A stretch of 40,275 nucleotides of DNA from Candidatus Omnitrophota bacterium (GTDB lineage: Bacteria > Omnitrophota > Gorgyraeia > Zapsychrales > Fredricksoniimonadaceae): contig JAYVSG010000076.1 in the NCBI GenBank assembly GCA_043775535.1, positions 1 through 40,275 of the forward strand. The letters are read 5' to 3'. The position numbers were made by a program, and so were the translations under genes. The notes beneath the pieces were generated by a model, which saw only the letters and a list, made by a program, of their open reading frames with translations, was not told the origin of the DNA and did no database searches. Each line of letters begins with the position of its first letter. Position 1 is the first letter of the stretch. Positions 5,906-36,521 of this stretch are shown one piece after another.

Positions 5906-5937
5906 AGTTCAAAAGTAACACAGAAACGGAATAAAAT

Positions 5938-7742: not shown

Positions 7743-7758
7743 TGTATTTTCCTTAAGA

Positions 7759-17351: not shown

Positions 17352-17768
17352 ATGATGACCCTTGCCCAAAAGACCGCGGTCGCCGCACTTATCCTGTCTG
17401 CCTCCATCAGCCTTTTCCAATTGACCGGCCGCAGCATAGTCCAAGAACAAAAGCCTGCAGGAATGCCGCTGCACAGCCTGGCCGACCAATTCAGGGGCTT
17501 GGAGAAGGTCTTTAACGGACTTCCCCGGGCCGGGTATTACTCTGACAAAAACATGGATATCCCGGTGGCCATTGCCCAATTCGAGCAGGCCCAATATATA
17601 TTGGCCCCGACGGTATTGGAACTCAATAACACATCCCTGCCCCTGATCATCTTTGACTGCACGAGCCCGGCGATCGCCATGGCCAAGATCAAGGAGCTGG
17701 GCCTTAAGCCTTTATCCGCCAGTAATACCGGGATCATCCTGGCTATTAACCCCGCGTTCGAGAAATAA
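17352..17768 (+). CDS. Small exported protein, function unknown
   Basis: 138 aa. N-terminal hydrophobic signal-like segment MMTLAQKTAVAALILSASISLF. Its stop lies 1 nt before the next ATG. Confidence 0.6.
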   Translation: MMTLAQKTAVAALILSASISLFQLTGRSIVQEQKPAGMPLHSLADQFRGLEKVFNGLPRAGYYSDKNMDIPVAIAQFEQAQYILAPTVLELNNTSLPLIIFDCTSPAIAMAKIKELGLKPLSASNTGIILAINPAFEK

Positions 17769-17769
17769 G

Positions 17770-18981
17770 ATGCTGAAAATATTATTGACCATTGCTTTGG
17801 GATTGGGGATCGCAGGCCACGGAGCATTCTACAGCCATATCGCCCTCAACATACATAACCGCGTCCTGCCGCTCGTCCTGACAGGCATCCTGGGCTGGGC
17901 ATGCTGGCAGTGGGCCGTAAAAGCGTCATTCCCGTGCAAACGGGAATCCAAAAATGGACCCTCGATAAAAACATTCGGGGGTGACAACATAGTTGGGCTG
18001 ACCATCTTGGTCATCCTCGGCATTTTCCTCTGGCTTGAAGCCAAGCATTATCCTATAGGCGGCTGGGATGCCTGGTCCTGTTGGAACCTGAAAGCCAAAT
18101 TCATTTTCTTAGGCGGCGAACGCTGGAAGGACATGCTCGACCCGCTGCTGTGGCGCAGCAATACGCAATACCCACTGCTGCTGCCGTCGATCAATGTGTG
18201 GTTCTGGGACATTCTAGGCGGCGCACCCCAATGGGTGCCGATGCTCAACAGCATCGCCTTTACCCTGCTCTCCGCCGGCATCCTGCTGTTCTCCTTGAAG
18301 CGTGCGTCCAAACAATGGCTCGTGCCCTGCCTCATGACCCTGGCTGTATTTGCCCTGCCCTTCAATGTGACGCTTGGAATCAGCCAATACAGCGATGTAC
18401 TCGTCGGGCTATATCTCCTCTGCTCCTTCGTCTGCTTATTATCCGAAGAGCTTGTCCTGTGCGGACTTTTCCTTGGTCTCTTAAGCTTCACCAAGACCGA
18501 AGGAATGCTGGCGGCCGGCATATTAGGCGCCCTGGTCGTGCTCAAACATAAAAAGAACTCTCTTCCCTTTATTGCCGCCTTTGCCATTGCCGCCCTGCCC
18601 ACAGTGATCTTCCAATTGTGCTTCGCCCCCAAGAACGAGGCCTTCATCAACGGACTCTTCTCGACGGTCAAACCATCGACATGGGACCGCCTAGAGACCA
18701 TCGCAAGCTATACGGTAACGGAATTGGCCAGCCTGAAATGGAACGGCCTATGGCTGGTATTGATCGGCGGCGTGGCAGCGTGCGGCAAGAAAGCCTGGTC
18801 CCCGCATGGCAGGATGATGGGGCTGTGCCTGGCGGCATACCTGCTGATGGTGCTGGGATATTACTACGTGAATACCTTCTTCGAGATAGGCTGGTGGATG
18901 CAGAACACGCTCAACCGCGTGCTGTTCGCAATGCTGCCGAGCGCAATGCTCTGGCTGGGCCTCTCCCTCTCTAAAAAATAA
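17770..18981 (+). CDS. Polytopic membrane protein, GT-C-like putative glycosyltransferase
   Basis: Trimmed from ORF 17653..18981 to ATG 17770 (MLKILLTIALGLGIAGHG). About 10 or more hydrophobic helices. The family assignment (ArnT/PMT-like) is tentative. Confidence 0.6.
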   Translation: MLKILLTIALGLGIAGHGAFYSHIALNIHNRVLPLVLTGILGWACWQWAVKASFPCKRESKNGPSIKTFGGDNIVGLTILVILGIFLWLEAKHYPIGGWDAWSCWNLKAKFIFLGGERWKDMLDPLLWRSNTQYPLLLPSINVWFWDILGGAPQWVPMLNSIAFTLLSAGILLFSLKRASKQWLVPCLMTLAVFALPFNVTLGISQYSDVLVGLYLLCSFVCLLSEELVLCGLFLGLLSFTKTEGMLAAGILGALVVLKHKKNSLPFIAAFAIAALPTVIFQLCFAPKNEAFINGLFSTVKPSTWDRLETIASYTVTELASLKWNGLWLVLIGGVAACGKKAWSPHGRMMGLCLAAYLLMVLGYYYVNTFFEIGWWMQNTLNRVLFAMLPSAMLWLGLSLSKK

Positions 18982-24439: not shown

Positions 24440-25338
24440 TTCTTCAAGGCCTCCCTGTACCCTTTCTCAGCGATGAAGGAGCTCCTGACCAAGGGGCCGC
24501 TTTCAACATATTTGAACCCAAGGTCCATGCCGATCTGGCGGAGGCGTTCAAATTCTTCAGGGGTGATAAAACGCTCGACGGGAAGGTGCCGCTTCCTCTG
24601 CGTGGGCGCGAGGTATTGGCCGATGGTCAATATATGGCATCCGGCGTCCAGCAGTTCGCGCATCATCACCGTCAGCTCTTCCTCGGTCTCTCCCAGACCC
24701 ACCATGCAGGATGATTTCACAAAAGCGTCCGGCGCCAATTGGCGGAAACGGCGCAGCACATGCAGGGAACGGTCATGGTCAGCCTGCGGACGGATCAACG
24801 ACGACAAACGCCGCACGGTCTCGATATTATGGCTGATAACCTCGGGAGCAGCAGCGCTCAATGCGGCAAGCGCATGCTCCTTGGCGGAAAAATCAGGGAT
24901 GAGCACTTCAATCTTCACTTCGGGCGTCAGACGGCGGATGGCCGCGATGGTGGCCGCAAAATGACCGGCACCTTCATCTTCGATATCGTCGCGGGCGACC
25001 GAGGTGATGACCACGTATTTCAAACCAAGGCGCTTGACGGAATCGGCGACATTGGCAGGTTCTTCAAGGTCGATCAGGTCGGGACGTCCGGCAGGCACGG
25101 CGCAAAAACGGCAGGCACGGGTGCAGGTGCCGCCCAGGATCATGAAGGTGGCTACGCCCTCGCCCCAGCATTGGCCCAGGTTCGGGCAATGGGCGCTTTC
25201 GCAGACAGTATGCAGCCTGTTCCCGCGGAACATCTCCTTCATCGAACGGACCTTGTCCATGTCCGGCAAAGGCTGTTTGAACCACGGGGGAAGCTTTGTC
25301 AATCCTGACTCAAACCTGGTCTGCTGCAAGTGTGCCAT
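24436..25338 (-). CDS. lipA: Lipoyl synthase
   Basis: 300 aa. CESAHCPNLGQCW and the radical-SAM motif CTRACRFC. Confidence 0.95.
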   Translation of the reverse strand: MAHLQQTRFESGLTKLPPWFKQPLPDMDKVRSMKEMFRGNRLHTVCESAHCPNLGQCWGEGVATFMILGGTCTRACRFCAVPAGRPDLIDLEEPANVADSVKRLGLKYVVITSVARDDIEDEGAGHFAATIAAIRRLTPEVKIEVLIPDFSAKEHALAALSAAAPEVISHNIETVRRLSSLIRPQADHDRSLHVLRRFRQLAPDAFVKSSCMVGLGETEEELTVMMRELLDAGCHILTIGQYLAPTQRKRHLPVERFITPEEFERLRQIGMDLGFKYVESGPLVRSSFIAEKGYREALKK

Positions 25339-25813
25339 CCTTGATCTGTTTCAAAATTTGTTTTTGTTCGGCGGCAGGCAGCACATCGATGATGAGCCTG
25401 CCCAGCAAATGGTCGTTCTCATGCTGGAAAACCTTGGCGGCCAGGCCGGTCAGCTTGGCCCGCACCTTCTGGTTGTTCTCGTCGGTGAACTCAACCTCGA
25501 CCGTCTTGGCACGCCTAACATTCACATGCACGCCCGGTATACTCAGGCAGCCTTCCTCGATCTCATCGCTCCCTGCAAGCTTCAATATCTTTGGATTGAT
25601 GACGGCAAAAGCATCCTTGCCCGTATCCACGACAAAGATCTGCTCCGTGATGCCCACCTGCGGGGCTGCCAGGCCGACACCTTTATTGGCCTGCATGGTC
25701 TCGAACATGGCCGCAATGAGCATGCGCTCGACCGCGCCCACTTCCTTGACCGGTTTGGATTTTTCCCGCAAGCACGGGTCGCCGATGATCCTGACCTTTA
25801 AAGGACCGAACAT
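25310..25813 (-). CDS. def: Peptide deformylase
   Basis: Trimmed to ATG 25813 (MFGPLKVRIIGDP). GVGLAAPQ, EGCLSIPG, HENDHL. Confidence 0.9.
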   Translation of the reverse strand: MFGPLKVRIIGDPCLREKSKPVKEVGAVERMLIAAMFETMQANKGVGLAAPQVGITEQIFVVDTGKDAFAVINPKILKLAGSDEIEEGCLSIPGVHVNVRRAKTVEVEFTDENNQKVRAKLTGLAAKVFQHENDHLLGRLIIDVLPAAEQKQILKQIKDGTLAADQV

Positions 25814-25814
25814 A

Positions 25815-26171
25815 TTATTTGGTCTTCTTGATCCTGTTCTTTTCGTCGAGATAGATGATCTGGGGCTTGATCCGCTTCGCTTCAGCAGCCTCTGCCAATG
25901 CATAGCTCAGGATGATGAGACGGTCGCCGACATACCCGTGGCGTGCGGCGGGACCATTGAGGCAGATCTCACCGGAACCAGGTTTGCCCGCGATGGTATA
26001 GGTCTCGATGCGCGAACCGGTGCTCTCATTGAGCACATGCACCTTCTCGCCCGGGATGAGGCCGGCGCCTTTAAGCACATCGCTGTCGATGGTGATGCTG
26101 CCTTCATAATACAATTCGGCCTGCGTCACCCGCGCATGCCCGATCTTCGATTTAAGGACTTCAATGAACAT
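25815..26171 (-). CDS. panD: Aspartate 1-decarboxylase
   Basis: MFIEVLKSKIGHARVTQAELYYEGSITID, including the Gly-Ser self-cleavage site. ATG 26171 with GGAG upstream; the ORF track begins one codon earlier at a GTG. Confidence 0.9.
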   Translation of the reverse strand: MFIEVLKSKIGHARVTQAELYYEGSITIDSDVLKGAGLIPGEKVHVLNESTGSRIETYTIAGKPGSGEICLNGPAARHGYVGDRLIILSYALAEAAEAKRIKPQIIYLDEKNRIKKTK

Positions 26172-26179
26172 CACAACTC

Positions 26180-26500
26180 CTATAAGTGTGGGGTTAACTT
26201 GGCCAAAAGACGGTCCTTCGGCATGGCGCCGACGATCTGGTCGACGGGTTTGCCGTTCTTGAATACCAGGAGGGTCGGGATGGACATGACATTGTATTCC
26301 CCGGCCAAGTCCGCTTCTTCATCCACATTGACCTTGCCCACCTTGAGCTTGCCCTGCAGTTCGTCAGCCAATTGGTCGACAATAGGACCGATGGCCTTGC
26401 ACGGACCGCACCATTCCGCCCAAAAATCAACCAGGACAGGGGTGGATGACTTCAAGACCTCCCCTTCAAAATTCTTTACGCCTAAATGTAATGCTCCCAT
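26180..26500 (-). CDS. trxA: Thioredoxin
   Basis: WAEWCGPCK active site. Trimmed to ATG 26500 (AAAGGAAAG RBS upstream); the track ORF begins at a TTG. Confidence 0.9.
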   Translation of the reverse strand: MGALHLGVKNFEGEVLKSSTPVLVDFWAEWCGPCKAIGPIVDQLADELQGKLKVGKVNVDEEADLAGEYNVMSIPTLLVFKNGKPVDQIVGAMPKDRLLAKLTPHL

Positions 26501-26520
26501 AGACTTTCCTTTCTGTAGGA

Positions 26521-26553
26521 TAAACAAAACTCCGCCACGGCAGGCCCTGGCGG
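26521..26553 (-). terminator. Candidate intrinsic terminator after the DUF819 gene
   Basis: Minus strand: ccgcca-N10-tggcgg stem (26532-26537 / 26548-26553) followed by AGTTTTGTTTA. Confidence 0.4.
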
Positions 26554-26563
26554 ATAGAGGGAT

Positions 26564-26592
26564 ATTATATATTTAATATGGGTTTTGGGCAA
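26564..26592 (-). promoter_or_regulatory. Candidate sigma70-type promoter for trxA-panD-def-lipA
   Basis: Minus strand: TTGCCC (26592-26587), 17-nt spacer, perfect TATAAT (26569-26564). Confidence 0.45.
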
Positions 26593-26601
26593 ATATTTAA
26601 T

Positions 26602-27771
26602 TCATGGCAAAAGCCGGCATATTTGGCCGACCGCGATCCCGATATAGGTACCTATGATGTTCCCTGCGATGGCAAGCAGTAACCCTAAGGGGGCTAATCC
26701 TTTATGATAAACCTCCGCCACAACGGGCGCGGACGCCACCCCTCCCAGATTGGCCTGGGAAGCTGCAGCGGCCAAGAACAAAGGGGCTTTGAACAAACGC
26801 AACGCCAGGAATAAAAACAACGCATGGATGGCAATGACCACGGTCCCGGCCGCCATCAGAACGAACGCTTGGGACATTTGGTTCAAATTAGCCTTGGCGC
26901 CAATGGTCGTCAGCACAAAATATAAAAGGAAATACCCGATCTTGTTCGATCCGTGCCCTTCCAATTTCTTTAAAGGCGTGGCAGAGAGGAATAAACCGAT
27001 GAAAGAAACAAAAACGATCACCCATGTGAAGGGACTGATCACGCCCTGGACCGCAGGCAAGGCTTTAGCAGCGGCATCTGCGAAGAAGGTCCCTGCGATC
27101 CCGATGGCAATGATGGCCAGGCCGCCATGGAAGGTGAAACGCACAGGCATGACATTGGCCTTGGCATGGTGTGCTTTTTGCTCAAGGTCGGCCGTGATGT
27201 CCCGACGGGCGCCATTCCAACGGTCAAAATCATGCTGATGCTGGCTTAAAGCGATGAGGCAGGCCATCCATAGATACGGAAGCACCGCATCCACGACGAC
27301 CAGAGGCAGGAATACATTGTCCGGTGCGGACAAGGCCTCCTTGACCGCGATCATGTTCGCAGAGCCTCCCGTCCATGATCCCGTCAAAGCTCCAAAACCG
27401 CTCCAATAATCCACGCCCACCACGCCTTTGAACATGGCGAAGGATGCGACCATGCCAAACCCTACCGAGACCGAACCGATGATGAACATCCCCAAAGCCA
27501 TGGGCCCAAGCCGGATGATCGACGGGACATCGACCGTCATCAATAATACCAGCAGGCTCATCGGCAAAACCCATTGGGTCACTTGACCGTAAAAGGGGCA
27601 TTTGGGGTCGATGATGCCAAAAGTCGAAAGCACCATGGGCAGGAAATAGATCCAGAAGATGTGCGGCAGGAATTTGAAGAACCGTTCCGTGCGCGAATGG
27701 CCGGCCAGGTACAGCACCGTTCCCTCGACGGCGAGCAATACGGCAGCAATGGCCGCAGGATGCTGGATCAC
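26602..27771 (-). CDS. DUF819-family polytopic membrane protein (putative transporter)
   Basis: 389 aa, 10 or more TM helices. FFKFLPHIFWIYFLPMVLSTFGII resembles the B. subtilis YjcL-type N-terminus as I recall it. 4-nt overlap with the epimerase gene. Confidence 0.6.
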   Translation of the reverse strand: MIQHPAAIAAVLLAVEGTVLYLAGHSRTERFFKFLPHIFWIYFLPMVLSTFGIIDPKCPFYGQVTQWVLPMSLLVLLMTVDVPSIIRLGPMALGMFIIGSVSVGFGMVASFAMFKGVVGVDYWSGFGALTGSWTGGSANMIAVKEALSAPDNVFLPLVVVDAVLPYLWMACLIALSQHQHDFDRWNGARRDITADLEQKAHHAKANVMPVRFTFHGGLAIIAIGIAGTFFADAAAKALPAVQGVISPFTWVIVFVSFIGLFLSATPLKKLEGHGSNKIGYFLLYFVLTTIGAKANLNQMSQAFVLMAAGTVVIAIHALFLFLALRLFKAPLFLAAAASQANLGGVASAPVVAEVYHKGLAPLGLLLAIAGNIIGTYIGIAVGQICRLLP

Positions 27772-28829
27772 GGGACGATCCCTATCCCAGCTTTGGCCCG
27801 CTGCAGGTCATAGATGCCCCGGCTGTTGAGATAGGGATTGCCTCGCAGGCCGTTCTTAATAAAGAATGGAGTGTCCAAGTCGATGAAATCGATACCGCCC
27901 AATCCCGCGGCCAGGTGAGCGGAACAGGTCATGGCCAGCGACGATTCCATCATGCCGCCCACCATCAATCTGACACCATTGGCCTGGGCCAGGCGTGCGA
28001 TGGCAACGGCATCGACCAAGCCTGTCTTCATTAATTTGATATTGACCGCGCCTGCTGCCTTCTCGCGAATAATGCGCACGACCTGGGCCAGGCTCGACGC
28101 GCTTTCATCCGCACAGACCAGAACCTTAGTCGAGCGTGTGACCTTCTTAAGACCTTCCCAGTCCTTCTTGGGGACAGGCTGTTCGACCATGGCAACCGTG
28201 ATGCCAGCCCTAGATAATGTTTTCAGGAATTTGAGCGTCTGTTCGGCTGAATACCCCTGATTAGCGTCGAGAATAAGCGTTGACCTTCCGGTCACCGCCG
28301 CCACGGCCTGCACACGCTTGAAGTCCAGGTCCATGTCCCTGCCGACCTTGATCTTGAAAGCACGAAAACCTTTTTTATAGAACTCCCTGGCCTTGGCCGT
28401 GGTTTCCTCAAGCGTTCCAATGACAATGGTGATGTCGGTTGCGAATGGTCGGGCCTCTGTACCCCACATGCGCCACAACGGCATCTTCAAACTGCGTGCC
28501 AGCGCATCGAACAGGGCCATGTGCACAGCAGCGACGGCGGACATATTGCCCGGAAGCAGGCTTTGCACATACGCGCATAACGCCAAATAATTTCCGATGT
28601 CCTGCCCGCGCAGGTATTCTGCCACGGTCTTCAAATTCTTCACGGTCTTAGGGATCGTCTCACCGGTGATATGTGTGGCCACCGCCGCCTCGCCATAGCC
28701 TTTGATGCCGCCGGCAAGCGTGATGGTCAACAGGACATTCTCCAGGGAATCATGCTGGCCCACCGCAATGCGGAACGGCTGGTTCAAAGGCGCGGACAAC
28801 AGCGAGACGCGGGCATGGGTGATGGTCAT
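27768..28829 (-). CDS. Dipeptide (L-Ala-D/L-Glu) epimerase, enolase superfamily (YkfB/YcjG-like)
   Basis: 353 aa. FKIKVG (KxK), LILDANQGY, VEQP, CADES, NIKLMKTG. Confidence 0.85.
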   Translation of the reverse strand: MTITHARVSLLSAPLNQPFRIAVGQHDSLENVLLTITLAGGIKGYGEAAVATHITGETIPKTVKNLKTVAEYLRGQDIGNYLALCAYVQSLLPGNMSAVAAVHMALFDALARSLKMPLWRMWGTEARPFATDITIVIGTLEETTAKAREFYKKGFRAFKIKVGRDMDLDFKRVQAVAAVTGRSTLILDANQGYSAEQTLKFLKTLSRAGITVAMVEQPVPKKDWEGLKKVTRSTKVLVCADESASSLAQVVRIIREKAAGAVNIKLMKTGLVDAVAIARLAQANGVRLMVGGMMESSLAMTCSAHLAAGLGGIDFIDLDTPFFIKNGLRGNPYLNSRGIYDLQRAKAGIGIVP

Positions 28830-30187
28830 GGATTGTTTTCAACAGCGACGATCTTGGATAAACGTTTGAGCAGGGAACCCTTGGTCGACCCTTCCCCCAG
28901 GTAGAGGTCGGAGACGATGACGCGGTTGAGCACACGTGGGACATCCTTGTCCCCCCGGCGTTCACGGAAGGCCCAGACCGCGTGCGCCGCATACGGCCGG
29001 CCGTCGATCTGCCCAAGATAAAGCATGATATGCCCTTTCATGGGCAGTATGGCCGTGGCACCGGGTTGGCGCTCAAACGCGGCAAGTTTCTGCGCATTGT
29101 CGCTTTTCTCGTCGAACTGGACGATCGCCTGCCCCACCTGGGCCTGGTCCTTGGAATCCCTCGGTAAAATGACCCCGACGGTGCCGAATACCTCATCCAG
29201 GAAGGCCGAACAATCCTGCTCGCCGTACATGCCTCCCCAGCCATAGGGCTGGTTGATCATGGCCAAAGCCTGTGTATAGATGACGCGCGGCGTATAGGGC
29301 AAATACCCCTCGTGCATGCCTTCGCTGTCCATGTATCCCTGCACCAGCTCAAGCTTATTGTCCTTGCCTGCCGCCGGGATGGAAACACTGATCTGTGCGC
29401 CCGAAGCACCGACGATGGGAAGCCGTGTGCCCATGCGCACATATCCCAGGTACCTGGTCATGCCCTCGTCCAAAAAGATATCCACTTTCGGGGAAGTCGT
29501 CACGGCAAAATGTTTGCTTTGGGTAAAATCCCGGACGGTCTTCATGTCCCCGAGCGCAATGCGGTCAGCCTCAACCCAGCCATCGGACAAGGGCGAGAAC
29601 ACATAATACCATTTCTTATCCAGGCTCTGATGCACGACCGCAACGGGACTTCCCACATCAAGGGTACTGTTCTGCAATTGGTCGAAATCAATGTCTCCCG
29701 GGGACTCATAGAGCCCTGCCGACGTCGGGAAGAACCTCACATCCGCATACCGCGTGACCAGGCCATAGCGCGGCGCCATGCCCAGCACCACCCCGCTCAG
29801 GTTCATGTTACGCCGGGCGCTGTCGATAAAGGCCGTATCATTGCGCACACCTTGGATGGTGCAAAAGCCCTTGTCCGTAAAATCCTGAATGGTCCGGTCA
29901 AAATCCTGCATCAAGGAATCTGTCTTAAAGCTCTCCGTAACGCCGAAGATGTCCTTGGTCAGCTTCAACTCATCCTGGATCCGGGCGTTGAAGGCATCGA
30001 TCTCCTGGGGAGTCATGACCACATGGACAGGGGAAGGATGGCGACCGATCCAGAAGCCCGGCCTGTTCATCTCCAAAGAAGTGCCGGGGACCCGGGATGG
30101 CGCAGCATTAAAAAGTTTCTCCTCCGCCGCCAGGGCATGCGGCACAATACCGGCACAAGCCAGCACAAAACACAAGAACACTCTCAT
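28826..30187 (-). CDS. Exported NlpC/P60 cysteine peptidase (YkfC-like gamma-D-Glu-diamino-acid endopeptidase) with an N-terminal extension
   Basis: Trimmed to ATG 30187 (MRVFLCFVLACAGIVPHALAAEE signal peptide, GAGG RBS); the track start at 30211 is a TTG. Catalytic Cys in QDCSAFLDEVF. GHIMLYLG and AAHAVW supply the His residues. Confidence 0.8.
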   Translation of the reverse strand: MRVFLCFVLACAGIVPHALAAEEKLFNAAPSRVPGTSLEMNRPGFWIGRHPSPVHVVMTPQEIDAFNARIQDELKLTKDIFGVTESFKTDSLMQDFDRTIQDFTDKGFCTIQGVRNDTAFIDSARRNMNLSGVVLGMAPRYGLVTRYADVRFFPTSAGLYESPGDIDFDQLQNSTLDVGSPVAVVHQSLDKKWYYVFSPLSDGWVEADRIALGDMKTVRDFTQSKHFAVTTSPKVDIFLDEGMTRYLGYVRMGTRLPIVGASGAQISVSIPAAGKDNKLELVQGYMDSEGMHEGYLPYTPRVIYTQALAMINQPYGWGGMYGEQDCSAFLDEVFGTVGVILPRDSKDQAQVGQAIVQFDEKSDNAQKLAAFERQPGATAILPMKGHIMLYLGQIDGRPYAAHAVWAFRERRGDKDVPRVLNRVIVSDLYLGEGSTKGSLLKRLSKIVAVENNP

Positions 30188-30195
30188 GGGGGACC

Positions 30196-31434
30196 TCACG
30201 TTTCCTGCCAAACACTGATCCGGGAGCTGCCAATCGATGAGTTTATGGTGGACAGAGCCTCGTCATAATGAATGGCGCTATTATTATTCACACTAACGGT
30301 CTTACCAATGAGGGAACCGTAAAGATCATTATTGTTACCGATGATGACATTTGTTTTAGGCGCATAGACCGCGACCGCCAACACCCCGTTATTATTGATG
30401 CTGATCCCTTTGCTCCCCGTATAGGCGCTATAGACCTGGAAATTCTTTGGGACGTTACCGGAACTGTTAAGGTTGACATTATTCGGTATGCTCAAGACCC
30501 CGTCCACATACAATTCCAGGCTGGCCCCGGAAGCAATATTGATCGTGGTATTATTCCCCGTGGAGAACGCCGTAGCCGCCGTCAAATACAGTTTCACCGT
30601 GCCATTGATGTTCAATGTGCCGTTGTTTGCCATGCTGATGTCGGTGTATTTGTAATTTCCCGCTGGCAAAGCTGTTGTGCCGCCATTGGACACGGACAAT
30701 GCTCCGCTGCTGGCGAGCCCGGTGAGAGTGGCCGGAACGCTTACGTCGGGCATTGAATAATTATTGGTGTGCGTTATTGTCCCCGTGATCACGGTGCCGG
30801 AGCCGGCCGTATTCGTACCTCCAACGCCTGTACTGACATCCCCTCCCAACGAAATATTGTTCCCAATGGAAATGATGCCGGCGGTCGTTCCATTGGAACC
30901 TATATCACCGTTGGTATTGCTGTTAGCGACACTATACGCACCGTTGTTGGAATTATAACTATCGATAAAAGTATTATTCGCCAGCGTGACCTGGCCTTGG
31001 GCGAACGCAGCAAATGAGAACGGGGATTGATGACTTATACTGCCCTGTATGTTCCTTTGTATCTTGGAGGAGCTGGTACGGCTCGGATAAGAGCCCTGAG
31101 AGGTGATCAAGGTGTTTGCATTATTAAGGACCACATCATAATCACCGGCACCGGTGATGGTGGCCGCCTTGGTCTTGTTGCCTCCCCCGCAGCTGCTGCA
31201 GCTGGCGCAGGCAGTATTTGTGCCTGCTTGGACCATTCCTGTACAATTATTGGTGTTGATCTCCCACACCACCTGCTGAATGCCTGCCTCCGTCAGCCAA
31301 AATGCCTGGGTGGAATTGGCATAACGGTTAGCGATCTTGCTTTCATTGACGCCGCGCAAAAGGATCAGTGCCCCTAAAATGGTCAAGATCAGTACCAGCA
31401 ATAAACTAAAAACGATCGAACCACGATTATTCAT
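30196..31434 (-). CDS. Oversized PilX-N-domain protein with an N/G/T-rich repetitive (beta-helix-like) body
   Basis: 412 aa. MNNRGSIVFSLLLVLILTILGALILLRG...QAFWLTEAGIQQ matches the PilX N-terminal pattern. Cys cluster CASCSSCGGG. Long Asn/Gly/Thr repeats. C-terminal VYAPKTNVIIGNNNDLYGSLIGKTV..HYDEAL. Confidence 0.7.
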   Translation of the reverse strand: MNNRGSIVFSLLLVLILTILGALILLRGVNESKIANRYANSTQAFWLTEAGIQQVVWEINTNNCTGMVQAGTNTACASCSSCGGGNKTKAATITGAGDYDVVLNNANTLITSQGSYPSRTSSSKIQRNIQGSISHQSPFSFAAFAQGQVTLANNTFIDSYNSNNGAYSVANSNTNGDIGSNGTTAGIISIGNNISLGGDVSTGVGGTNTAGSGTVITGTITHTNNYSMPDVSVPATLTGLASSGALSVSNGGTTALPAGNYKYTDISMANNGTLNINGTVKLYLTAATAFSTGNNTTINIASGASLELYVDGVLSIPNNVNLNSSGNVPKNFQVYSAYTGSKGISINNNGVLAVAVYAPKTNVIIGNNNDLYGSLIGKTVSVNNNSAIHYDEALSTINSSIGSSRISVWQET

Positions 31435-31912
31435 TTCTAAGCCTCACTTTCATGGCCAGCGGAAAAGAGTATGTCCGCGCACCCACAGCCTTATCGGCTC
31501 GGATATTGATCTGCATCAGCGACGCGCTGGCCGCAAACTTCAAATAGGCAATGTTGGTTGCTACTATTTTGGTCATCCCAGTGGGATATTCCCTCAGCAG
31601 ATTCGTTCCGCTGCGGTAATAATTTATCCCGGTCTCATTGGGGGTGCTAAAAGCAATGCGATAGCTGTTCGCATCGATCATCGTGATCGTTGTGGTCGAT
31701 GATTCCCGGATCTCCCGCAGCATGCGGTCCATGCCGGCACGGGCCTGTTGCTGCATATCCAAGAGCGCATTGTCACCAGTGGTGACCACATTGCCCGTGA
31801 CCAAGACGCCGTATACCCCAAGCAAGATAAAAGAAAGCAGTAGGACGCTGATCAGCGCCTCTGGCAACGTGTACCCTCTGCTGCCTTTTAACTTGTGAGA
31901 AATGTGTACCAT
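31427..31912 (-). CDS. Minor pseudopilin, PilW/GspJ-like
   Basis: 161 aa. Prepilin leader and methylation motif KGSRG|YTLPEALISVLLLSFILLGV, then QQQARAGMDRMLREIRES. 8-nt overlap with the downstream gene. Confidence 0.75.
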   Translation of the reverse strand: MVHISHKLKGSRGYTLPEALISVLLLSFILLGVYGVLVTGNVVTTGDNALLDMQQQARAGMDRMLREIRESSTTTITMIDANSYRIAFSTPNETGINYYRSGTNLLREYPTGMTKIVATNIAYLKFAASASLMQINIRADKAVGARTYSFPLAMKVRLRNE

Positions 31913-32289
31913 GACCTACTCCTGGCGCGATTATTAAGATCCTTCCAACTTACGGTAACCTGCACATTATAAATGGTATTGCCCGTATACGTGACCGCTA
32001 TCGATTCGCCGTTAAGGGCATTTAACCCATTACTTGTCACTGCCGCCGTGTTCCAATTCCAGGTGCCGCCGGTGATGCTGGCTCCCACGCTGCTAAATGC
32101 GGTATTGCGTATGTCTTCAAGGACAAATTCCGCATGGCTGGTCGCCGCAGTCAGGTTGCGGCTGGCCGCATTCAGGGCAAAACAGCCCACATAAGTGGCC
32201 AAGATGACGGAGAGGGAATAAGCCAGGATAGCTGCAGTAGCAAGCAGTTCCACGAGAGTAAATGCATATACCTTACGGCAGATCATCAT
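31888..32289 (-). CDS. Pseudopilin (prepilin-type N-terminal domain protein)
   Basis: Trimmed from ORF 31888..32580 to ATG 32289: MMICRKVYA|FTLVELLATAAILAY. C-terminal VQVTVSWKD. An in-frame ATT at 32340 behind a GGAGGA is an alternative start. Confidence 0.65.
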   Translation of the reverse strand: MMICRKVYAFTLVELLATAAILAYSLSVILATYVGCFALNAASRNLTAATSHAEFVLEDIRNTAFSSVGASITGGTWNWNTAAVTSNGLNALNGESIAVTYTGNTIYNVQVTVSWKDLNNRARSRSWYTFLTS

Positions 32290-32422
32290 AAGATTTATTG
32301 TACAAACATTCTTTTTGTCCCGCAATGAAGGTTTGCAAATACTTTCCTCCTCTCTAATTAAAGCATACCACATGCTGCAGCCGTATCCAAGGATACCGCC
32401 GTCGGAAAACGCTTTCTTACCC

Positions 32423-32450
32423 TTGCGCAATACCCCAAAGGAGATATACT
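32423..32450 (+). promoter_or_regulatory. Candidate promoter for the plus-strand pseudopilin module
   Basis: TTGCGC (32423-32428), 16-nt spacer, TATACT (32445-32450). GGGAG RBS at 32469-32473, 6 nt before ATG 32480. Confidence 0.3.
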
Positions 32451-32479
32451 TTATATAGGGGCTTATACGGGAGCATTTT

Positions 32480-32944
32480 ATGCGCTTCACCGGCTTCAAG
32501 AACGATCGCAGGGGCAAGGGCTTCACCATCGTAGAACTTCTGATATCCTCTGTTGTTTTCATGGTCACCGTTATCGGCATCTTATACAGCTACCTGAAAT
32601 GCCTGGAACTCTCCGAGATCGGCCGCAATTCCTCGATCGCCGTACAGGCCTCCAAGAACAAGATGGAAGACATCAAGAATTCCACCTTCAGCACCCTGTA
32701 CGCCACCTATAATAACACCACCTTCACCGCCACCGGGCTGCCCAACGGCATCGGTGTGGTCTATGTGAACAATACCAATCCCTCCCTGGTCCAGGTCAAG
32801 ATCGTCTTTTGCTGGAAACAGCCCAATGGACGCCTGATCGGCGAAGATACGAATTTGAATGGTGTGCTCAATACCGGGGAAGATACGAACGCCAACGGAC
32901 AACTGGATTCCTACGTGCAGATGGTCACGAATCTCTATGGTTAA
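32480..32944 (+). CDS. Pseudopilin with two C-terminal DxNxNG calcium-loop-like motifs
   Basis: 154 aa. Leader MRFTGFKNDRRGKG|FTIVELLISSVVFMV. VQVKIVFCWKQ. DTNLNGVLNTGE and DTNANGQLDSYV. Confidence 0.8.
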   Translation: MRFTGFKNDRRGKGFTIVELLISSVVFMVTVIGILYSYLKCLELSEIGRNSSIAVQASKNKMEDIKNSTFSTLYATYNNTTFTATGLPNGIGVVYVNNTNPSLVQVKIVFCWKQPNGRLIGEDTNLNGVLNTGEDTNANGQLDSYVQMVTNLYG

Positions 32945-33587
32945 CAGCAGGCATGCCTTCTCACTGGTCGAATTGATGCTGGTGGCCGCTCTCACGGCCT
33001 TCCTGACCGCAGCTGTTTTCGGCCTGCTGGGTAATGCCCAAACCAATTTCTTTAACGCCGATGCTAGCATTGACCTGCGCAACAGCATGCGCCTTGCTTC
33101 CGAGAAGATCTCGATGGAACTGCGCAATACGGGATACAAAAGTGCGGTGCCGCAATTCTCCATCCTGGACAATACCGGCGTCGGAGGCTCGGACATCATC
33201 CGTTTCTCCATCCCCATCCTGTGCACAACGACCGCAACCCTCCTCGATAGTTCGGGGAACCCTGCCTACTGGGGAGCACCCAAGACTTGGGGATGCGACG
33301 CCTCCACGTGCATGGATGCGAATAACAATTGCGCCATCCAGGAATACAAATACGTGCAGTATGCGCTCAATTCGTCCAACCAGCTGGAACGCAAGATCCT
33401 CGACACCGTGCTCGGCACGGTCAGCGGGACAACGACCATCGTAGGGCAGAACATCACCAACCTGCAGGCCACGATCAGCAGCAACCAGATGACCGTTATC
33501 CTGTCAGGACAGAAAATATCAGCGGTCAAGAAGACGCTGACCATGAGCTATACAAACAAGGTCTTCCTGAATAACTTCGGGGGTTGA
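32937..33587 (+). CDS. Minor pseudopilin, PilW/GspJ-like, with a Cys-rich insert
   Basis: Trimmed to ATG 32937: MVNSRHA|FSLVELMLVAALTAFL, DLRNSMRLASEKISMELRN. Four Cys in ILCTT...WGCDASTCMDANNNC. 8-nt overlap with the upstream gene. Confidence 0.75.
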   Translation: MVNSRHAFSLVELMLVAALTAFLTAAVFGLLGNAQTNFFNADASIDLRNSMRLASEKISMELRNTGYKSAVPQFSILDNTGVGGSDIIRFSIPILCTTTATLLDSSGNPAYWGAPKTWGCDASTCMDANNNCAIQEYKYVQYALNSSNQLERKILDTVLGTVSGTTTIVGQNITNLQATISSNQMTVILSGQKISAVKKTLTMSYTNKVFLNNFGG

Positions 33588-33588
33588 T

Positions 33589-35289
33589 ATGAAAAACCTA
33601 CGTCATGATAAAAGCGGCATTGTCCTGGCCATATCCCTCCTGGTCCTGATCATCACCATCACCCTCTCGGCTGTATATATCTCCCGTGCCGTGCATGAAA
33701 AAGCCATGGCGGAACGTGAGCTCCGGGCCGCCAAAGCCCTGTACACCTCCGAAGCGGGCGGACAGGCGGGTCTCGCCATGCTCGATACCATCATCAATAC
33801 CGACCTGCTCAATACCGTCAACGCCACGTCCGCGACCACCGTCTCTGCCCAGGCAGCCAACTATGTCAGCACCAACAATGCCATCGGGTTCCTGATCGCC
33901 TATGCCAAGAACGGGGCGACGGCCATGTTCACGGCCAGCGGATCAGAAGGCGTCTACACCGGCAGCGCCACAGCCCTGGATGGAAGTTCCTACACCTACA
34001 GCATCCGCATCACGGCCAAAGGCAATCCTGTGACAGTGGCGTCGAATATCTGGGACTTCCCCTACTATTTTCGTATCCAGACCACCGGTACTAACGGCAG
34101 CCAGGCCAAAAAGTTCACGGTCAACGGCGACTTCACCGTGCGTGTGCAGAAAGATAATTTCGCCCGCTATGCACTGTTCACCAACAACCAGACCCTGCCC
34201 AACGGCACCAATGTCTGGTTCACAAATACGACCAATTTCTCCGGACCCATGTTCACTAACGGCCGATACAATTTCGCCTACAACCCCAGCGGAACCTTCT
34301 ACGACGCGGTCAAACAGGAAGACAGCATGGCACGGTTCTACAACAATAACAGCCCGGTCAGCGTCAATGCCAGCTCCAATGGGACCATCGACGTGCCCAT
34401 CTTCAAATCGACCTTCACCCGCTCGGCTGCGGCCATCTCCATGCCCACGACCAGTTCGGAAGCCACCATGTCGGCGGCTGCCACGGCCGGCAATACCTAC
34501 GGCAGCAACGGCATCTATCTCCCTGCCAGCGGCAGCACACTGACTGGCGGCATCTATGTGAAGGGCGACGCCACCGTGGCCCTCAGCGTCGATGCCAGCG
34601 ACCGTGCCGTATACACGATCACCCAGGGCGCCACCACCAAGACCATCACGGTCAACCGCACAACCAACCAGACATCCGTGACGACCTCCAGCGGCACCAC
34701 GACCTATACCGGCAAACCCGACGGCACAAGCGGCAGCGGGACCATCCTCTTTGTCAACGGCAACATCAGCAGCCTGAGCGGCACCGTGCAAAAAGACACC
34801 CAAATGACCATTGCCACCCATAATGATGTGGTGATCCAGAATAATATCAAATACGCGCAATATACCGCCTCCAGCGGCACCGTGGGCACCGCCGGCTATG
34901 TGGCCCCCTCCGCAGAAGGGTACACCAATCTGCTTGGGATCATGAGCTGGACCGGCGATGTGCGCATCGGCACCTCGGCCCCCAATAACGTGGAGATACA
35001 TGCGACCGTCATGACCCAATCCGGTGTCTTTACCGTGGACAATTACGACACGACCTCCGTGCGCGGGACAGGGACGGTGATGGGCGGAGTCATCAGTGAT
35101 TATTACGGCGGGTTCGGAACTTTCAACAGCGCGACCGGCCTTTCTGTTTCCGGCTATGGCCGCAACTTCGTCTATGACACCCGCATGGACACACAGTACA
35201 CGCCGCCGTATTTCCCGACGATCAATACCTTTATTGCCTTCACCAATGACATCAATGACAAGAAATTCTGGCAACCGGGAGGTTTTTAA
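33589..35289 (+). CDS. Oversized PilX-N-domain protein with a T/S/N/G-rich body (possibly DUF4900-like)
   Basis: 566 aa. MKNLRHDKSGIVLAISLLVLIITITLSAVYI...KALYTSEAGGQAG. Thr/Ser/Gly-rich repeats. C-terminal GYGRNFVYDTRM..PPYFP. Confidence 0.7.
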   Translation: MKNLRHDKSGIVLAISLLVLIITITLSAVYISRAVHEKAMAERELRAAKALYTSEAGGQAGLAMLDTIINTDLLNTVNATSATTVSAQAANYVSTNNAIGFLIAYAKNGATAMFTASGSEGVYTGSATALDGSSYTYSIRITAKGNPVTVASNIWDFPYYFRIQTTGTNGSQAKKFTVNGDFTVRVQKDNFARYALFTNNQTLPNGTNVWFTNTTNFSGPMFTNGRYNFAYNPSGTFYDAVKQEDSMARFYNNNSPVSVNASSNGTIDVPIFKSTFTRSAAAISMPTTSSEATMSAAATAGNTYGSNGIYLPASGSTLTGGIYVKGDATVALSVDASDRAVYTITQGATTKTITVNRTTNQTSVTTSSGTTTYTGKPDGTSGSGTILFVNGNISSLSGTVQKDTQMTIATHNDVVIQNNIKYAQYTASSGTVGTAGYVAPSAEGYTNLLGIMSWTGDVRIGTSAPNNVEIHATVMTQSGVFTVDNYDTTSVRGTGTVMGGVISDYYGGFGTFNSATGLSVSGYGRNFVYDTRMDTQYTPPYFPTINTFIAFTNDINDKKFWQPGGF

Positions 35290-35537
35290 TGAAGGGGAAA
35301 GCACTCATTGCGTTGGGGCTGCTCATTGCGGTCGTATTGATGTTCTCAAAGCCGCCTGCCAAGGTGCAGGCACCCGATGTCCCTGCACCTGTCGCAGCGG
35401 AACCTGCTATGCCTTCCACTGAGATCACATCGGCGCCCATTCCACCCACGTCGGAAAAGGCTGCTGCGGGGGAAGAAAAAGAAAAGCCCGTACCGGTCTA
35501 TGAAGCACCGATCCAGGGCAATATCCTTGTGATGTGA
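35289..35537 (+). CDS. Small membrane-anchored Pro-rich protein, unknown function
   Basis: 82 aa. MKGKALIALGLLIAVVLMF, then a P/A/E-rich tail. Its ATG overlaps the stop of the 566-aa gene (TAATG). Confidence 0.5.
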   Translation: MKGKALIALGLLIAVVLMFSKPPAKVQAPDVPAPVAAEPAMPSTEITSAPIPPTSEKAAAGEEKEKPVPVYEAPIQGNILVM

Positions 35538-35948
35538 TCAATCCGGGTAAATGATCTCGAAGGGGACCTGCACGTCGGGATGAAGGCTTTTGTGTACGGG
35601 ACAAGCATGTGCAGCAGCCTCGAGCATGGGACGCTTGTCCACAGGGATGCCGGAAGCCATGCGCAGGGTCACACCGATGGTGCCGATACGGCGCGCAGGC
35701 ACGACCACCATTTCCTTGGTGACCAGAACAGTGCTGCCGTTAAGCTCAATGCCATGCTTGGCTGCGGCAATGCCCATGACGGTCAACATGCAGGAACCAA
35801 GTGCCGCGGCAACAAGGTCGGTCGGGGAAAAGGCCTCACCCTTCCCGTTGTTATCCTTAGGTGCGTCGGTGCTGATGACGCTTCCCGAGGGGCCGTGGGT
35901 GAGCCGGCAATGCAGCCCGCCTTCGTATACGATATCCATTTTGACCAT
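35538..35948 (-). CDS. OsmC/Ohr-family protein
   Basis: Trimmed to ATG 35948 (AGGAG RBS). FSPTDLVAAALGSCMLTVMG and AAAHACPVHKSL are OsmC-family Cys motifs. Confidence 0.85.
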   Translation of the reverse strand: MVKMDIVYEGGLHCRLTHGPSGSVISTDAPKDNNGKGEAFSPTDLVAAALGSCMLTVMGIAAAKHGIELNGSTVLVTKEMVVVPARRIGTIGVTLRMASGIPVDKRPMLEAAAHACPVHKSLHPDVQVPFEIIYPD

Positions 35949-35960
35949 GAAGAACTCCTG

Positions 35961-35989
35961 TTGACAAACACGTTTAATTTGCCTAAATT
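35961..35989 (+). promoter_or_regulatory. Candidate promoter 10 nt upstream of the yqhA ATG (possible leaderless mRNA)
   Basis: Perfect TTGACA (35961-35966), 17-nt spacer, TAAATT (35984-35989). ATG at 36000. No Shine-Dalgarno. Confidence 0.4.
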
Positions 35990-35999
35990 GTAATCCAAT

Positions 36000-36521
36000 A
36001 TGGGACCCAATAAAAGAAGTATTCTTGAGCACATCTTTGAGACACTGCTGTGGAAATCACGGCTCATCGTCATCCTGCCGGTGATCTTCGGCGTGCTGGC
36101 CGCCATCGGGCTCTTCGTGGCCGGTAGCTATGACATCGTGCACACCATCGTCCACAGCCTGCCCTCGCACGGGGAAGAACCTGACTACGCAAAGATCCTC
36201 ATCGGTGTCATCGGGGCGATCGACCTTTATTTGATCGGCATCGTGCTCCTCATCTTCTCCTTCGGCATCTATGAACTGTTCATCTCCCAGATCGACATCG
36301 CCCGCAATGACATCGAGCACAACATCCTTGAGATCGGCTCGCTCGATGAACTGAAGAATAAGATCCTTAAAGTGGTGGTCATGGTGCTGATCGTCACCTT
36401 CTTCAAGATCGTCCTGAGCGCCACCTTTACCACGCCGCTTGAGATGCTGTACCTAGCCATCTCCATCCTGGCGATCGCCGCCTGTACGTTCTTCCTGCGC
36501 GGCATGGACCATGACAAATAA
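36000..36521 (+). CDS. yqhA: YqhA-family (UPF0114) membrane protein
   Basis: 173 aa. LLWKSRLIVILPVIFG, IDLYLIGIVLLIFSFGIYELFISQID and LDELKNKILKVV match the YqhA pattern. Confidence 0.75.
   Translation: MGPNKRSILEHIFETLLWKSRLIVILPVIFGVLAAIGLFVAGSYDIVHTIVHSLPSHGEEPDYAKILIGVIGAIDLYLIGIVLLIFSFGIYELFISQIDIARNDIEHNILEIGSLDELKNKILKVVVMVLIVTFFKIVLSATFTTPLEMLYLAISILAIAACTFFLRGMDHDK

Follow-up and report, generated by a model that had tools for sequence, protein, structure and literature searches.

The GspI-GspJ-GspK complex of type II secretion systems (T2SS) and the PilV-PilW-PilX complex of type IVa pili (T4aP) serve in priming and tip formation, and their K subunit lacks Glu5. In other bacteria, minor-pilin clusters that stand alone as a rule work with a machine encoded elsewhere, e.g. 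fimU-pilVWXY1E in Pseudomonas. The competence pilin locus of Thermus thermophilus has the order pilA1-pilA2-pilA3-comZ-pilA4; ComZ (PDB 6QVI) is the proposed tip pilin and DNA receptor, with a pilin domain closest in fold to GspK and a solenoid whose closest folds are ice-binding proteins including FfIBP, 4nu2 (Salleh et al. 2019, PMC6561018). In Myxococcus xanthus, clusters 1-3 encode minor pilins together with PilY1 (Treuner-Lange et al. 2020, PMC7541494; Herfurth et al. 2022, PMC8833165), and the three minor-pilin sets of the genome are thought to serve one T4aP machine with different tip adhesins (PMC8833165).

In the window considered here (the whole stretch of 40,275 nt analysed, from a Candidatus Omnitrophota bacterium) seven genes had been claimed to form two divergent arms around a 190-bp spacer, and all seven ORFs are present (Table 1). 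Overlaps of 1-25 nt had been described between genes within the arms; this is correct for four junctions, A/B (25 nt), B/X (8 nt), A'/B' (8 nt) and X'/small gene (1 nt), but B' and X' are separated by a 1-nt gap. Likewise, X is the third gene of the minus arm but does not close it: an SH3b1-NlpC/P60 gene comes next, and the choice of start decides between a 16-nt overlap and an 8-nt gap. In a six-frame scan of the window, class III signal-peptide motifs turned up in A, B, A' and B' and nowhere else; these are the four N-termini named in the original prediction. Its further statement that pilus machinery is absent agrees with our Pfam scans of the 30 other ORFs in the window (three ORFs without a match were rescanned at E 0.01), which yielded no ATPase, platform protein, prepilin peptidase or secretin.

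Table 1. Genes of the two arms, the spacer between them and candidate expression signals
Feature	Position	Strand	Length or motif	Basis or remark
A	31888-32289	minus	133 aa	ORF
B	31427-31912	minus	161 aa	ORF
X	30196-31434	minus	412 aa	ORF
A'	32480-32944	plus	154 aa	ORF
B'	32937-33587	plus	216 aa	ORF
X'	33589-35289	plus	566 aa	ORF
Small gene (plus arm)	35289-35537	plus	82 aa	ORF
Divergent spacer between A and A'	32290-32479		190 bp	
Candidate minus-arm promoter	32390-32362	minus	TTGGAT (32390-32385), 17-nt spacer, TGgTATGCT (-10 at 32367-32362)	read from sequence
Candidate plus-arm promoter	32423-32450	plus	TTGCGC (32423-32428), 16-nt spacer, TATACT (32445-32450)	
Plus-arm SD	32469-32473	plus	GGGAG	A' ATG at 32480

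The leaders of the small pilins, with a slash between positions -1 and +1, are MMICRKVYA/FTLVE in A (Ala at -1, Glu at +5), ...KGSRG/YTLPE in B, ...RRGKG/FTIVE in A' and MVNSRHA/FSLVE in B'. The Pfam N_methyl profile gave scores of 17-22 bits (cutoff 21.2), including 17.1 for A, 21.3 for B and 21.7 for A'. Weak family matches connect A and A' to GspI/XpsI/PilV (NCBIfam XpsI, i.e. GspI, with E 5.5e-5, under cutoff, for A; PilV with E 2.5e-4 for A') and B and B' to ComGF/PilV/PpdB (ComGF/PilV for B; NCBIfam GspH/PpdB for B'); matches to GspI/J/K and PilV/W/X-type families were all below curated cutoffs. The B' family, with four conserved Cys, has a weak profile match (E 0.015) to the Thermus type-IV-like pilin TTHA1219 (5g23), and the family alignment of A' shows a conserved C-terminal double loop, GEDxNLNG..GEDTNGNG..D. 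By sequence, A and A' are GspI/PilV-like minor pilins, and B and B' GspJ/PilW-like ones. Pilin-motif HMM scores were at or below curated cutoffs. The families have mostly Gly at -1 and Glu at +5; the -1 residue in A and B' is Ala rather than Gly.

The large third proteins X and X' scored above the gathering thresholds of DUF7305 (PF23981; E 4.9e-19) and DUF4900 (PF16241; E 4.3e-13), respectively, and are bona fide members of these families. Both families are uncharacterised, with no functional work found in the literature searched; their domains are often combined with PilX_N (PF14341), and some sources label members 'Tfp pilus assembly protein PilX'. The N-terminus of X has weak matches to DUF2509/YgdB and PilX_N. 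In both families Gly is retained and the +5 residue is hydrophobic: in X' Gly10 is invariant and Glu at +5 is absent in 15 of 15 sequences, and in the X family Glu is missing from +5 with the exception of one truncated, misaligned row. A third gene with Gly but without Glu5 is as expected for a subunit that enters first and stands at the top of the fibre.

The AlphaFold model of X (pLDDT 89.5) has an N-terminal hydrophobic helix, a small pilin sheet and then an ice-binding-protein-like beta-helix. For X' (pLDDT 73.6, moderately confident, with residues 200-290 poor) the predicted architecture is a long N-terminal helix, a pilin sheet, the DUF4900 region and a large beta-solenoid. Both models thus combine a pilin domain with a beta-solenoid, as had been anticipated for large proteins with beta-helix-like bodies at the PilX position. 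The top PDB match of X in Foldseek was ComZ (6qvi; E 4.8e-6, prob 1.0), followed by beta-helices of ice-binding proteins including FfIBP 4nu2, the same group as the nearest folds of the ComZ solenoid; for X' ComZ was the sole significant PDB match (6qvi_B; E 5.4e-8, prob 1.0). On these models X is predicted to be a tip pilin at the GspK/PilX position and X' a ComZ-like tip pilin.

Like ComZ, these proteins have a GspK-like pilin domain bearing a large triangular beta-solenoid related to ice-binding proteins and an N-terminal hydrophobic helix without the canonical processed-pilin signature; they too are encoded beside small GspI/J-like minor pilins, and the proposed role is that of a fibre cap. 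The likeness is structural only: sequence homology of X or X' to ComZ was not detectable, and global TM-scores were low (0.21-0.31). There are other differences: X' has an extra DUF4900 region and the poorly modelled segment, the Omnitrophota set consists of three pilin-like genes and a small transmembrane (TM) protein as opposed to four pilins and ComZ in Thermus, and two different ComZ-like genes are present here, unlike in the Thermus locus. The original prediction did not recognise the mirrored arrangement with beta-helix-like PilX fusions as a described system; a giant beta-solenoid tip pilin is already known in ComZ (PMC6561018).

The gene order I-J-K in each arm, which upholds the view of both arms as minor-pilin tip-complex cassettes of the same order, is that of the T2SS GspI-GspJ-GspK tip (ETEC, PDB 3CI0) and of the T4aP PilV-PilW-PilX core. 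Shared features are Glu5 in I and J and its absence in K, and a K subunit that is the largest and has an inserted domain; by analogy, the role would be priming and tip formation. The inserted domain, however, is predicted to be a beta-solenoid in Omnitrophota, while it is alpha-helical in GspK, and the Omnitrophota cassettes lack a GspH/FimU-like fourth pilin and PilY1.

Proteins of the two arms were claimed to be homologous position by position, and we found this to be so. A and A' are 32% identical in BLASTP (E 1e-15), with a family match by hhalign at prob 99.4 and E 1.8e-21. No significant BLASTP match was seen for B/B' or X/X', and pairing them needs profile methods: the B and B' families match over 154 columns (prob 99.8, E 8e-29), while the match of X to X' is limited to the first 67 residues (E 2.5e-14); the A/A' and B/B' matches run along their length. 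Profile-profile pairing between the arms is position-specific, and the motifs quoted as shared are visible in pairwise alignments. Local duplication of one cassette, as first suggested, was rejected because X and X' fall into two Pfam families, each conserved independently across Omnitrophota; the arms are ancient paralogues.

In this respect the locus resembles Myxococcus, where paralogous minor-pilin sets also lie away from machine genes, with small pilins homologous between sets and the large adhesive component highly divergent. Myxococcus has PilY1 as an adhesin apart from the pilins, whereas in Omnitrophota the presumed binding domain is fused to the K-position pilin; a set has four minor pilins in the former and three pilin-like genes in the latter. 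The three Myxococcus sets (PMC8833165) also run counter to the expectation that minor-pilin operons are usually single-copy.

The DUF4900 trio is present in essentially every Omnitrophota species sampled: of 75 species loci, 73 gave a match to A' immediately ahead of B' and X', and 70 a match to B'. Homologues of X' number at least 394 matches at E<=0.001, of constant length and 50-73% identity; the named ones are all Omnitrophota MAGs. The 82-aa protein, a bitopic membrane protein with an N-terminal TM helix and a Pro-rich tail, has no Pfam or NCBIfam match; 60 of the 75 loci have a comparable TM protein of 80-120 aa whose start coincides with the X' stop or lies close by, and where the trio is embedded among machine genes this protein sits between X' and pilM. 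It is the fourth gene of the plus-arm cassette, and together with the DUF4900 trio it makes a core, phylum-wide set.

Among 61 species with enough flank, 29 carry the DUF4900 trio within a complete type IVa pilus operon (pilB-pilC-pilin-trio-pilMNOPQ): pilB/pilC come first, and the trio lies after the major pilin and before pilMNOPQ. L002/L019 and 28 other species show two PilB-type ATPases and PilC, then a major pilin and the trio, then pilM-pilN-pilO-(123 aa)-secretin. The embedded state occupies basal branches of the X' NJ tree, and two derived clades are detached. The original prediction had itself counted a place beside a full machine in close relatives as evidence against it. A novel system was rejected, given the trio within a standard T4aP operon in relatives and a ComZ-type tip pilin already described. 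The lack of machinery in the window probably reflects dispersal of pilus genes; nearly all Omnitrophota reportedly have T4aP genes (PMC10066038). Our favoured interpretation, to which we assign a probability of about 0.75, is that each arm specifies a priming/tip complex of a type IVa pilus with motor genes elsewhere in the genome; from relatives and the literature we infer that this genome has the machine genes.

The spacer appears to hold two back-to-back sigma-70-like promoter candidates. In the plus direction TATACT lies 10-20 nt before the SD, and L008, L009, L010, L011, L012, L017, L022, L068 and L072 keep it ahead of A'. The minus-arm candidate was not called by a consensus scan; its -10 element plus the TTAATTAGnnAGGAGG block are kept upstream of A in L008 and L082, and the conserved leader downstream of it contains GGAGG and a mini-ORF that starts with ATT. 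With arm starts 190 bp apart and candidate -35 elements only ~32 bp apart, a shared control region might switch between two alternative caps, with one tip displayed at a time; L008 has the same divergent layout and a spacer 73% identical, with conserved blocks, and alternative PilY1/minor-pilin sets of Myxococcus are reportedly differentially expressed (PMC9109919). We consider such a regulatory unit unlikely, however, as the divergent layout was found in just one of 75 other species loci (L008), while close relatives have either cassette alone at the same OsmC/NlpC site (L009, L010, one JGI contig), two cassettes in tandem (L011) or unlinked cassettes (L003 and L010, from one MAG), which also speaks against the mirrored arrangement as a conserved unit. 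Moreover, each arm keeps a promoter-like motif of its own, also present when the arm stands alone, and no long inverted repeats flank the spacer, hence no sign of an invertible switch; both points disagree with the proposed shared bidirectional control region. There was no Rfam match in the spacer, and there is no adjacent regulator gene.

In at least six unrelated contexts the three genes of the DUF7305 trio occur together as a unit, in one case as two trios in tandem; the trio is a free-standing accessory cassette. None of the sampled contexts places it next to machine genes, it is patchily distributed (45 single-sequence matches of X, compared with 394 or more for X'), and distant members of the family in Aminicenantes are found without the trio; all this would fit a trio serving some other, unseen filament (e.g. 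a competence pseudopilus of its own) or an orphan set that is drifting and does little. We find this quite improbable, since the ORFs are intact and tightly overlapping, with 40-69% identity and constant lengths, each member of the trio has its homologue at the same position of the core trio, the model of X is confident and ComZ-like, and in Pseudomonas and Myxococcus a distant machine is the rule for such clusters.

That the cassettes are GspI-J-K pseudopilus tips for protein secretion and not parts of a surface pilus is very unlikely, for although the weak GspI and GspH/PpdB matches, the GspK-like fold of the ComZ pilin domain and the ATPase/platform families T2SSE and T2SSF, common to both kinds of system, point that way, the GspI/H matches are far below curated cutoffs, a GspH-like fourth pseudopilin is absent, the neighbours in relatives are PilM_2, PilN, PilO, a secretin and a separate major pilin with no GspC/L/M there, and published surveys class the Omnitrophota system as T4aP (PMC10066038).

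Under the type IVa pilus interpretation, A/A', B/B' and X/X' would be the GspI/PilV-like, GspJ/PilW-like and GspK/PilX-position subunits of each arm, the first two with Glu5 and a cleavage site for prepilin peptidase. If they behave like GspIJK and Thermus PilA2/ComZ, their three helices would come together in the inner membrane, on the PilC/PilMNO platform, and the trio would seed polymerisation of the major pilin and finish at the pilus tip. The beta-solenoid of X or X' would there be exposed as a binding surface; possible targets are DNA, the proposed ligand of ComZ, and the surface of a host or prey cell. The DUF4900 trio would ancestrally belong to the pilus operon and have become detached in the source lineage, and the DUF7305 trio may be an accessory, relocatable alternative set giving the same machine a second tip specificity. 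The cassettes would then be ordinary accessory parts of a type IV pilus rather than a new system; for the DUF4900 and DUF7305 families, the predicted ComZ-like fold and the trio context are what is added here to existing knowledge.

The ORF listing confirmed all seven genes that the original prediction had assigned to two divergent arms: A, B and X on the minus strand, and A', B', X' and a small fourth gene on the plus strand. Inside the arms, neighbouring genes overlap by up to 25 nt or lie at most 1 nt apart.

Genes of the two arms, the spacer between them and the candidate promoters in the window
Feature	Position	Strand	Size or elements	Source
A	31888-32289	minus	133 aa	ORF listing
B	31427-31912	minus	161 aa	ORF listing
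X	30196-31434	minus	412 aa	ORF listing; Pfam DUF7305, E 4.9e-19
A'	32480-32944	plus	154 aa	ORF listing
B'	32937-33587	plus	216 aa	ORF listing
X'	33589-35289	plus	566 aa	ORF listing; Pfam DUF4900, E 4.3e-13
Small gene	35289-35537	plus	82 aa	ORF listing
Spacer between arms	32290-32479		190 bp	
Candidate plus-arm promoter	32423-32450	plus	TTGCGC, 16 nt, TATACT	comparative alignment, inferred
Candidate minus-arm promoter	32390-32362	minus	TTGGAT, 17 nt, TGgTATGCT	comparative alignment, inferred

A class III signal peptide was defined by a short basic leader, Gly (rarely Ala) at −1, a hydrophobic residue at +1, Glu at +5 and a stretch of ∼20 hydrophobic residues. Proteins A, B, A' and B' all carry such an N-terminus (..KVYA|FTLVE, ..GSRG|YTLPE, ..RGKG|FTIVE and ..SRHA|FSLVE, respectively), and a six-frame motif scan of the 40 kb returned exactly these four sites, the ones named in the original prediction. 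Across homologues of the four proteins the −1 residue is Gly, sometimes Ala, and the +5 residue is Glu; among homologues with a recognizable motif, Gly at −1 was seen in 60 of 65 for A' and in 50 of 59 for B'. Scores against PF07963 (N_methyl, cutoff 21.2 bits) were above the cutoff for A' (21.7) and B (21.3) and below it for B' (20.8) and A (17.1), and the TIGR02532 scores of all four proteins were under the cutoff. Weak matches were obtained to XpsI/GspI and PilV with A and A', to ComGF, PilV and PpdB with B and B', and to DUF2509 (YgdB) and PilX_N with the N-terminus of X. The PilX_N (PF14341) score of X, 13.2 bits, is below the cutoff of 25.5, the Pfam scan gave no match of X' to this family, and precomputed PF14341 matches exist in some X/X' homologues only.

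The third genes show a different pattern at the cleavage region. The X' family has the conserved Gly in 15 of 15 sequences and Glu at +5 in none of the 15; the X family has the Gly in 17 of 20, with Glu at +5 confined to one row that is shortened and misaligned. Otherwise the +5 position is hydrophobic in both families. Retention of Gly with absence of Glu5 is the signature of the GspK-type subunit, the first to enter the fibre. Both X and X' are directly preceded by GspI-like and GspJ-like pilins, and the order A-B-X holds in all DUF7305 trios examined in Omnitrophota. The weak family matches together with the Gly/Glu5 pattern argue that each arm is a trio of I-J-K type; the order, the motifs and the family matches bear out the idea that the arms are tip cassettes.

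Two features of the plus-arm pilins have no counterpart in their paralogues. The C-terminus of A' (residues ∼121-144, window 32840-32911) has a family-conserved double loop, GEDxNLNGVLDxGEDTNGNGxLDS, resembling Ca2+-binding loops of EF-hand, dockerin or thrombospondin type; A is without this loop. In B', cysteines C96, C120, C125 and C132 (residues 96-132, window 33222-33332) are conserved or nearly so family-wide, which suggests two disulfides in an insertion which the shorter B lacks.

The two arms had been interpreted as a duplicated tip cassette. In pairwise BLASTP the sole supported pair was A/A' (32% identity, E 1e-15), with nothing significant for B/B' and X/X'. Profile-profile comparison aligned A with A' over 112 columns (E 1.8e-21) and B with B' over the full length (E 8e-29), with far weaker scores for non-cognate pairs; for X and X' the similarity is limited to the first 67 residues (E 2.5e-14). 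By these comparisons the arms are ancient position-wise paralogues with different C-terminal families. The paralogy in the earlier interpretation was thus supported, but the duplicated unit was not: the third genes belong to different Pfam families and each cassette is conserved independently, which rules out a local or recent duplication.

AlphaFold models of X and X' were built from family alignments. The model of X (pLDDT 89.5) has a helix at residues 4-62, a four-stranded sheet and a beta-helix running to the C-terminus; in that of X' (pLDDT 73.6) a helix (6-79) and a sheet (115-190) precede a confident beta-solenoid (300-530), with residues 200-290 modelled poorly. In a Foldseek search of the PDB, X' had one significant match, ComZ of Thermus thermophilus (6qvi_B, E 5.4e-8, probability 1.0). 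The first match of X was also ComZ 6qvi (E 4.8e-6, probability 1.0), followed by solenoids of ice-binding proteins (IBPs) including FfIBP 4nu2. ComZ consists of a GspK-like pilin domain and a ∼380-residue solenoid whose closest fold is FfIBP; it binds the minor pilin PilA2 and DNA, and a location at the pilus tip has been proposed (PMC6561018). The models of both X and X' likewise combine in one chain a pilin domain and a large IBP-like beta-solenoid. Since global TM-scores for X and X' against ComZ are low (0.21-0.31) and no sequence similarity is detectable (6QVI was not retrieved by X' or X profile searches of PDB sequences even at E ≤ 10), the predicted likeness to ComZ is one of architecture, not demonstrable family membership. 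When PDB sequences were searched by profile, nothing meaningful was matched with X, X' or A', and the B' profile found only weak pilin matches. No functional study of either DUF4900 or DUF7305 turned up in literature searches, and the model-based assignment of a ComZ-like architecture to both families is a new element of modest added value. It suggests that the design of ComZ is not a Thermus oddity.

Thirty other window ORFs were scanned against Pfam, the three without a match a second time at E 0.01. The scans revealed housekeeping genes; a pilus ATPase, platform protein, prepilin peptidase or secretin was not among them, and the reported lack of pilus machinery within 40 kb holds. ORFs without a Pfam match include one of 1168 aa (13628-17134, minus strand), located in the lowest-GC stretch of the window (∼0.49 versus ∼0.54) with strongly negative GC skew, and an adjoining one of 442 aa (17653-18981). 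Another, of 426 aa (25296-26576, plus strand), is probably spurious because the same interval in a syntenic JGI contig contains genes of thioredoxin, aspartate decarboxylase and peptide deformylase on the opposite strand.

X' has at least 394 homologues at E ≤ 0.001, the best-scoring of them 50-73% identical and of almost constant length, and all those with a source name come from Candidatus Omnitrophota MAGs. A scan with one genome per species gave 75 loci, whose plus arms we then surveyed by tblastn. A' was detected in 73 of them and B' in 70, always just upstream of X' and in the order seen in the window; a small transmembrane protein starting at the X' stop was present in 60. Where the downstream flank was 4.5 kb or longer, 29 of 61 loci have a major pilin before the trio and pilM-pilN-pilO, a 123-aa gene and a secretin directly after the cassette. 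PilB-type ATPases were found upstream of the cassette in 16 of the 48 loci with enough flank. In a fully annotated locus, L002, the order is MshEN, two T2SSE ATPases, T2SSF, pilin, trio, small gene, PilM, PilN, PilO and secretin. Association with T4aP genes (major pilin, pilB/pilC/pilMNOPQ) is absent in the window itself, present for the plus-arm cassette in relatives and never seen for the DUF7305 trio; T4aP genes are reported for nearly all Omnitrophota (PMC10066038). A T2SS GspHIJK set would be expected with a GspC/L/M-type platform, whereas relatives have PilM_2/PilN/PilO instead, and matches to GspI, XpsI and GspH were far under cutoffs, short of an equivalog-level assignment to T2SS GspHIJK.

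In the neighbor-joining tree of X' the cassette embedded in the T4aP operon occupies basal branches, with two derived clades of detached cassettes, one of them including the window. The embedded loci and the tree together indicate that, as far as these comparisons go, the machinery is missing because a T4aP operon that was contiguous ancestrally has been dispersed in this lineage. Neither a pilin system lacking its machinery nor a bidirectional switch nor an undescribed system is upheld, and the finding does not reveal a new system type. In L001, whose X' is 70% identical and which is the closest relative, the DUF4900 cassette (5265-8596) is detached and comes immediately after genes for a response regulator and a PAS-GGDEF-EAL protein, which hints at c-di-GMP-linked control there; a Peptidase_A24-like gene is located ∼9 kb from this cassette.

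The minus arm has a more scattered distribution. X gave 45 single-sequence matches, also from Omnitrophota; its profile reaches members from Aminicenantes at ∼27% identity, where contexts of the distant DUF7305 proteins were uninformative. The DUF7305 trio (∼135, 155 and 410 aa) is a tight three-gene unit in the unrelated neighbourhoods of loci L003, L005, L082 and L083. The accessory cassette can itself be multi-copy: a metagenomic contig, L084, has two trios in tandem at 4431-9344 (166/181/419 aa and 168/204/447 aa). No machine genes were found near the trio at any of these five loci.

What lies between OsmC and the NlpC/P60 operon (window 30196-36032) varies: both cassettes, DUF4900 only or DUF7305 only. 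A 52-kb JGI contig (3300071358) syntenic with the window (MFS, UPF0114, OsmC, A-B-X, NlpC/P60, epimerase, DUF819) is without the plus arm; in loci L009 and L010 this site holds the plus arm, with the minus arm absent. Apart from the window, only L008 has both arms in the mirror layout; there the small fourth gene of the plus arm is followed by an inserted 703-aa TPR protein (9685-11796) for which the window has no counterpart. In L011 the DUF7305 trio is in tandem, downstream of the plus arm, and in the one MAG that contains both L003 and L010 the two cassettes are unlinked. From these varied arrangements we conclude that the head-to-head layout is, on comparative evidence, one of several configurations and not a conserved unit. 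Documentation of an accessory relocatable tip cassette in Omnitrophota is a further new element of modest added value.

Immediately downstream of X (26602-30211, minus strand) are genes of an exported SH3b1-NlpC/P60 peptidase (probable true start Met9, 30187), an MR_MLE epimerase of the enolase superfamily and a DUF819 membrane protein, which look like a murein-peptide module of YkfC/YkfB type. They are syntenic in relatives with or without pilin arms; a role as part of the pilin module was rejected, as L009 and L010 have these genes but no minus arm, and other DUF7305 trios are not accompanied by them.

The spacer had been proposed to be a shared bidirectional control region. Between the window and L008 the spacer has 73% identity and contains conserved blocks. 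Upstream of A', many detached loci have in common a TATACT box that precedes the Shine-Dalgarno sequence by 10-20 nt; upstream of A, a -10-like box followed by TTAATTAGnnAGGAGG is common to the window, L008 and L082. A consensus promoter and terminator scan of the spacer gave nothing, and no Rfam element, riboswitch or known RNA was found in spacer or window. An invertible switch was ruled out, the only flanking inverted repeats being short and at chance level. The evidence favours two independent back-to-back promoters, the candidates suggested by alignment, over a shared switch. Ahead of A (32290-32367, minus strand) is a leader conserved in the window, L008 and L082; it contains the -10-like box, TTAATTAGnnAGGAGGAAA and, after these, a mini-ORF with an ATT start that encodes I-[P/C]-K-x-S-L and shows synonymous differences. 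The mini-ORF has 14 codons in L008 and 6 in L082, and in the window it is in frame with A (ATT at 32340); judging from three sequences only, it may be a uORF or leader.

The most likely mechanism can be modelled on GspIJK and Thermus PilA2/ComZ. Each trio would assemble on the inner-membrane platform into a priming complex of three helices, topped by X or X', which lacks Glu5; polymerization of the major pilin would proceed beneath it, and the beta-solenoid would be carried to the pilus tip, where its surface would bind DNA or the envelope of a host or prey. Throughout the phylum, piliation or tip function probably requires the core DUF4900 set. By analogy with Myxococcus, where three minor-pilin/PilY1 clusters offer alternative specificity (PMC8833165), the DUF7305 set would provide an alternative tip specificity. 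One could speculate further that DUF7305 trios are interchangeable, relocatable tip cassettes retargeting one Omnitrophota type IV pilus to different hosts, prey or DNA, somewhat like the swappable tail-fibre modules of phages, and that head-to-head placement beside the DUF4900 cassette in this lineage makes a co-regulated either/or tip switch in a host-dependent lifestyle; we regard this as unlikely, with roughly one chance in seven.

The Omnitrophota, most of them ultra-small, are bacteria that have not been cultured and are thought to be dependent on hosts or prey. Type IVa pili, found in nearly all of them, have been proposed as an attachment device (PMC10066038). The proteins described here are concrete pilus-tip candidates for this phylum: the DUF4900 protein, which is phylum-wide, and the DUF7305 protein, which is accessory.
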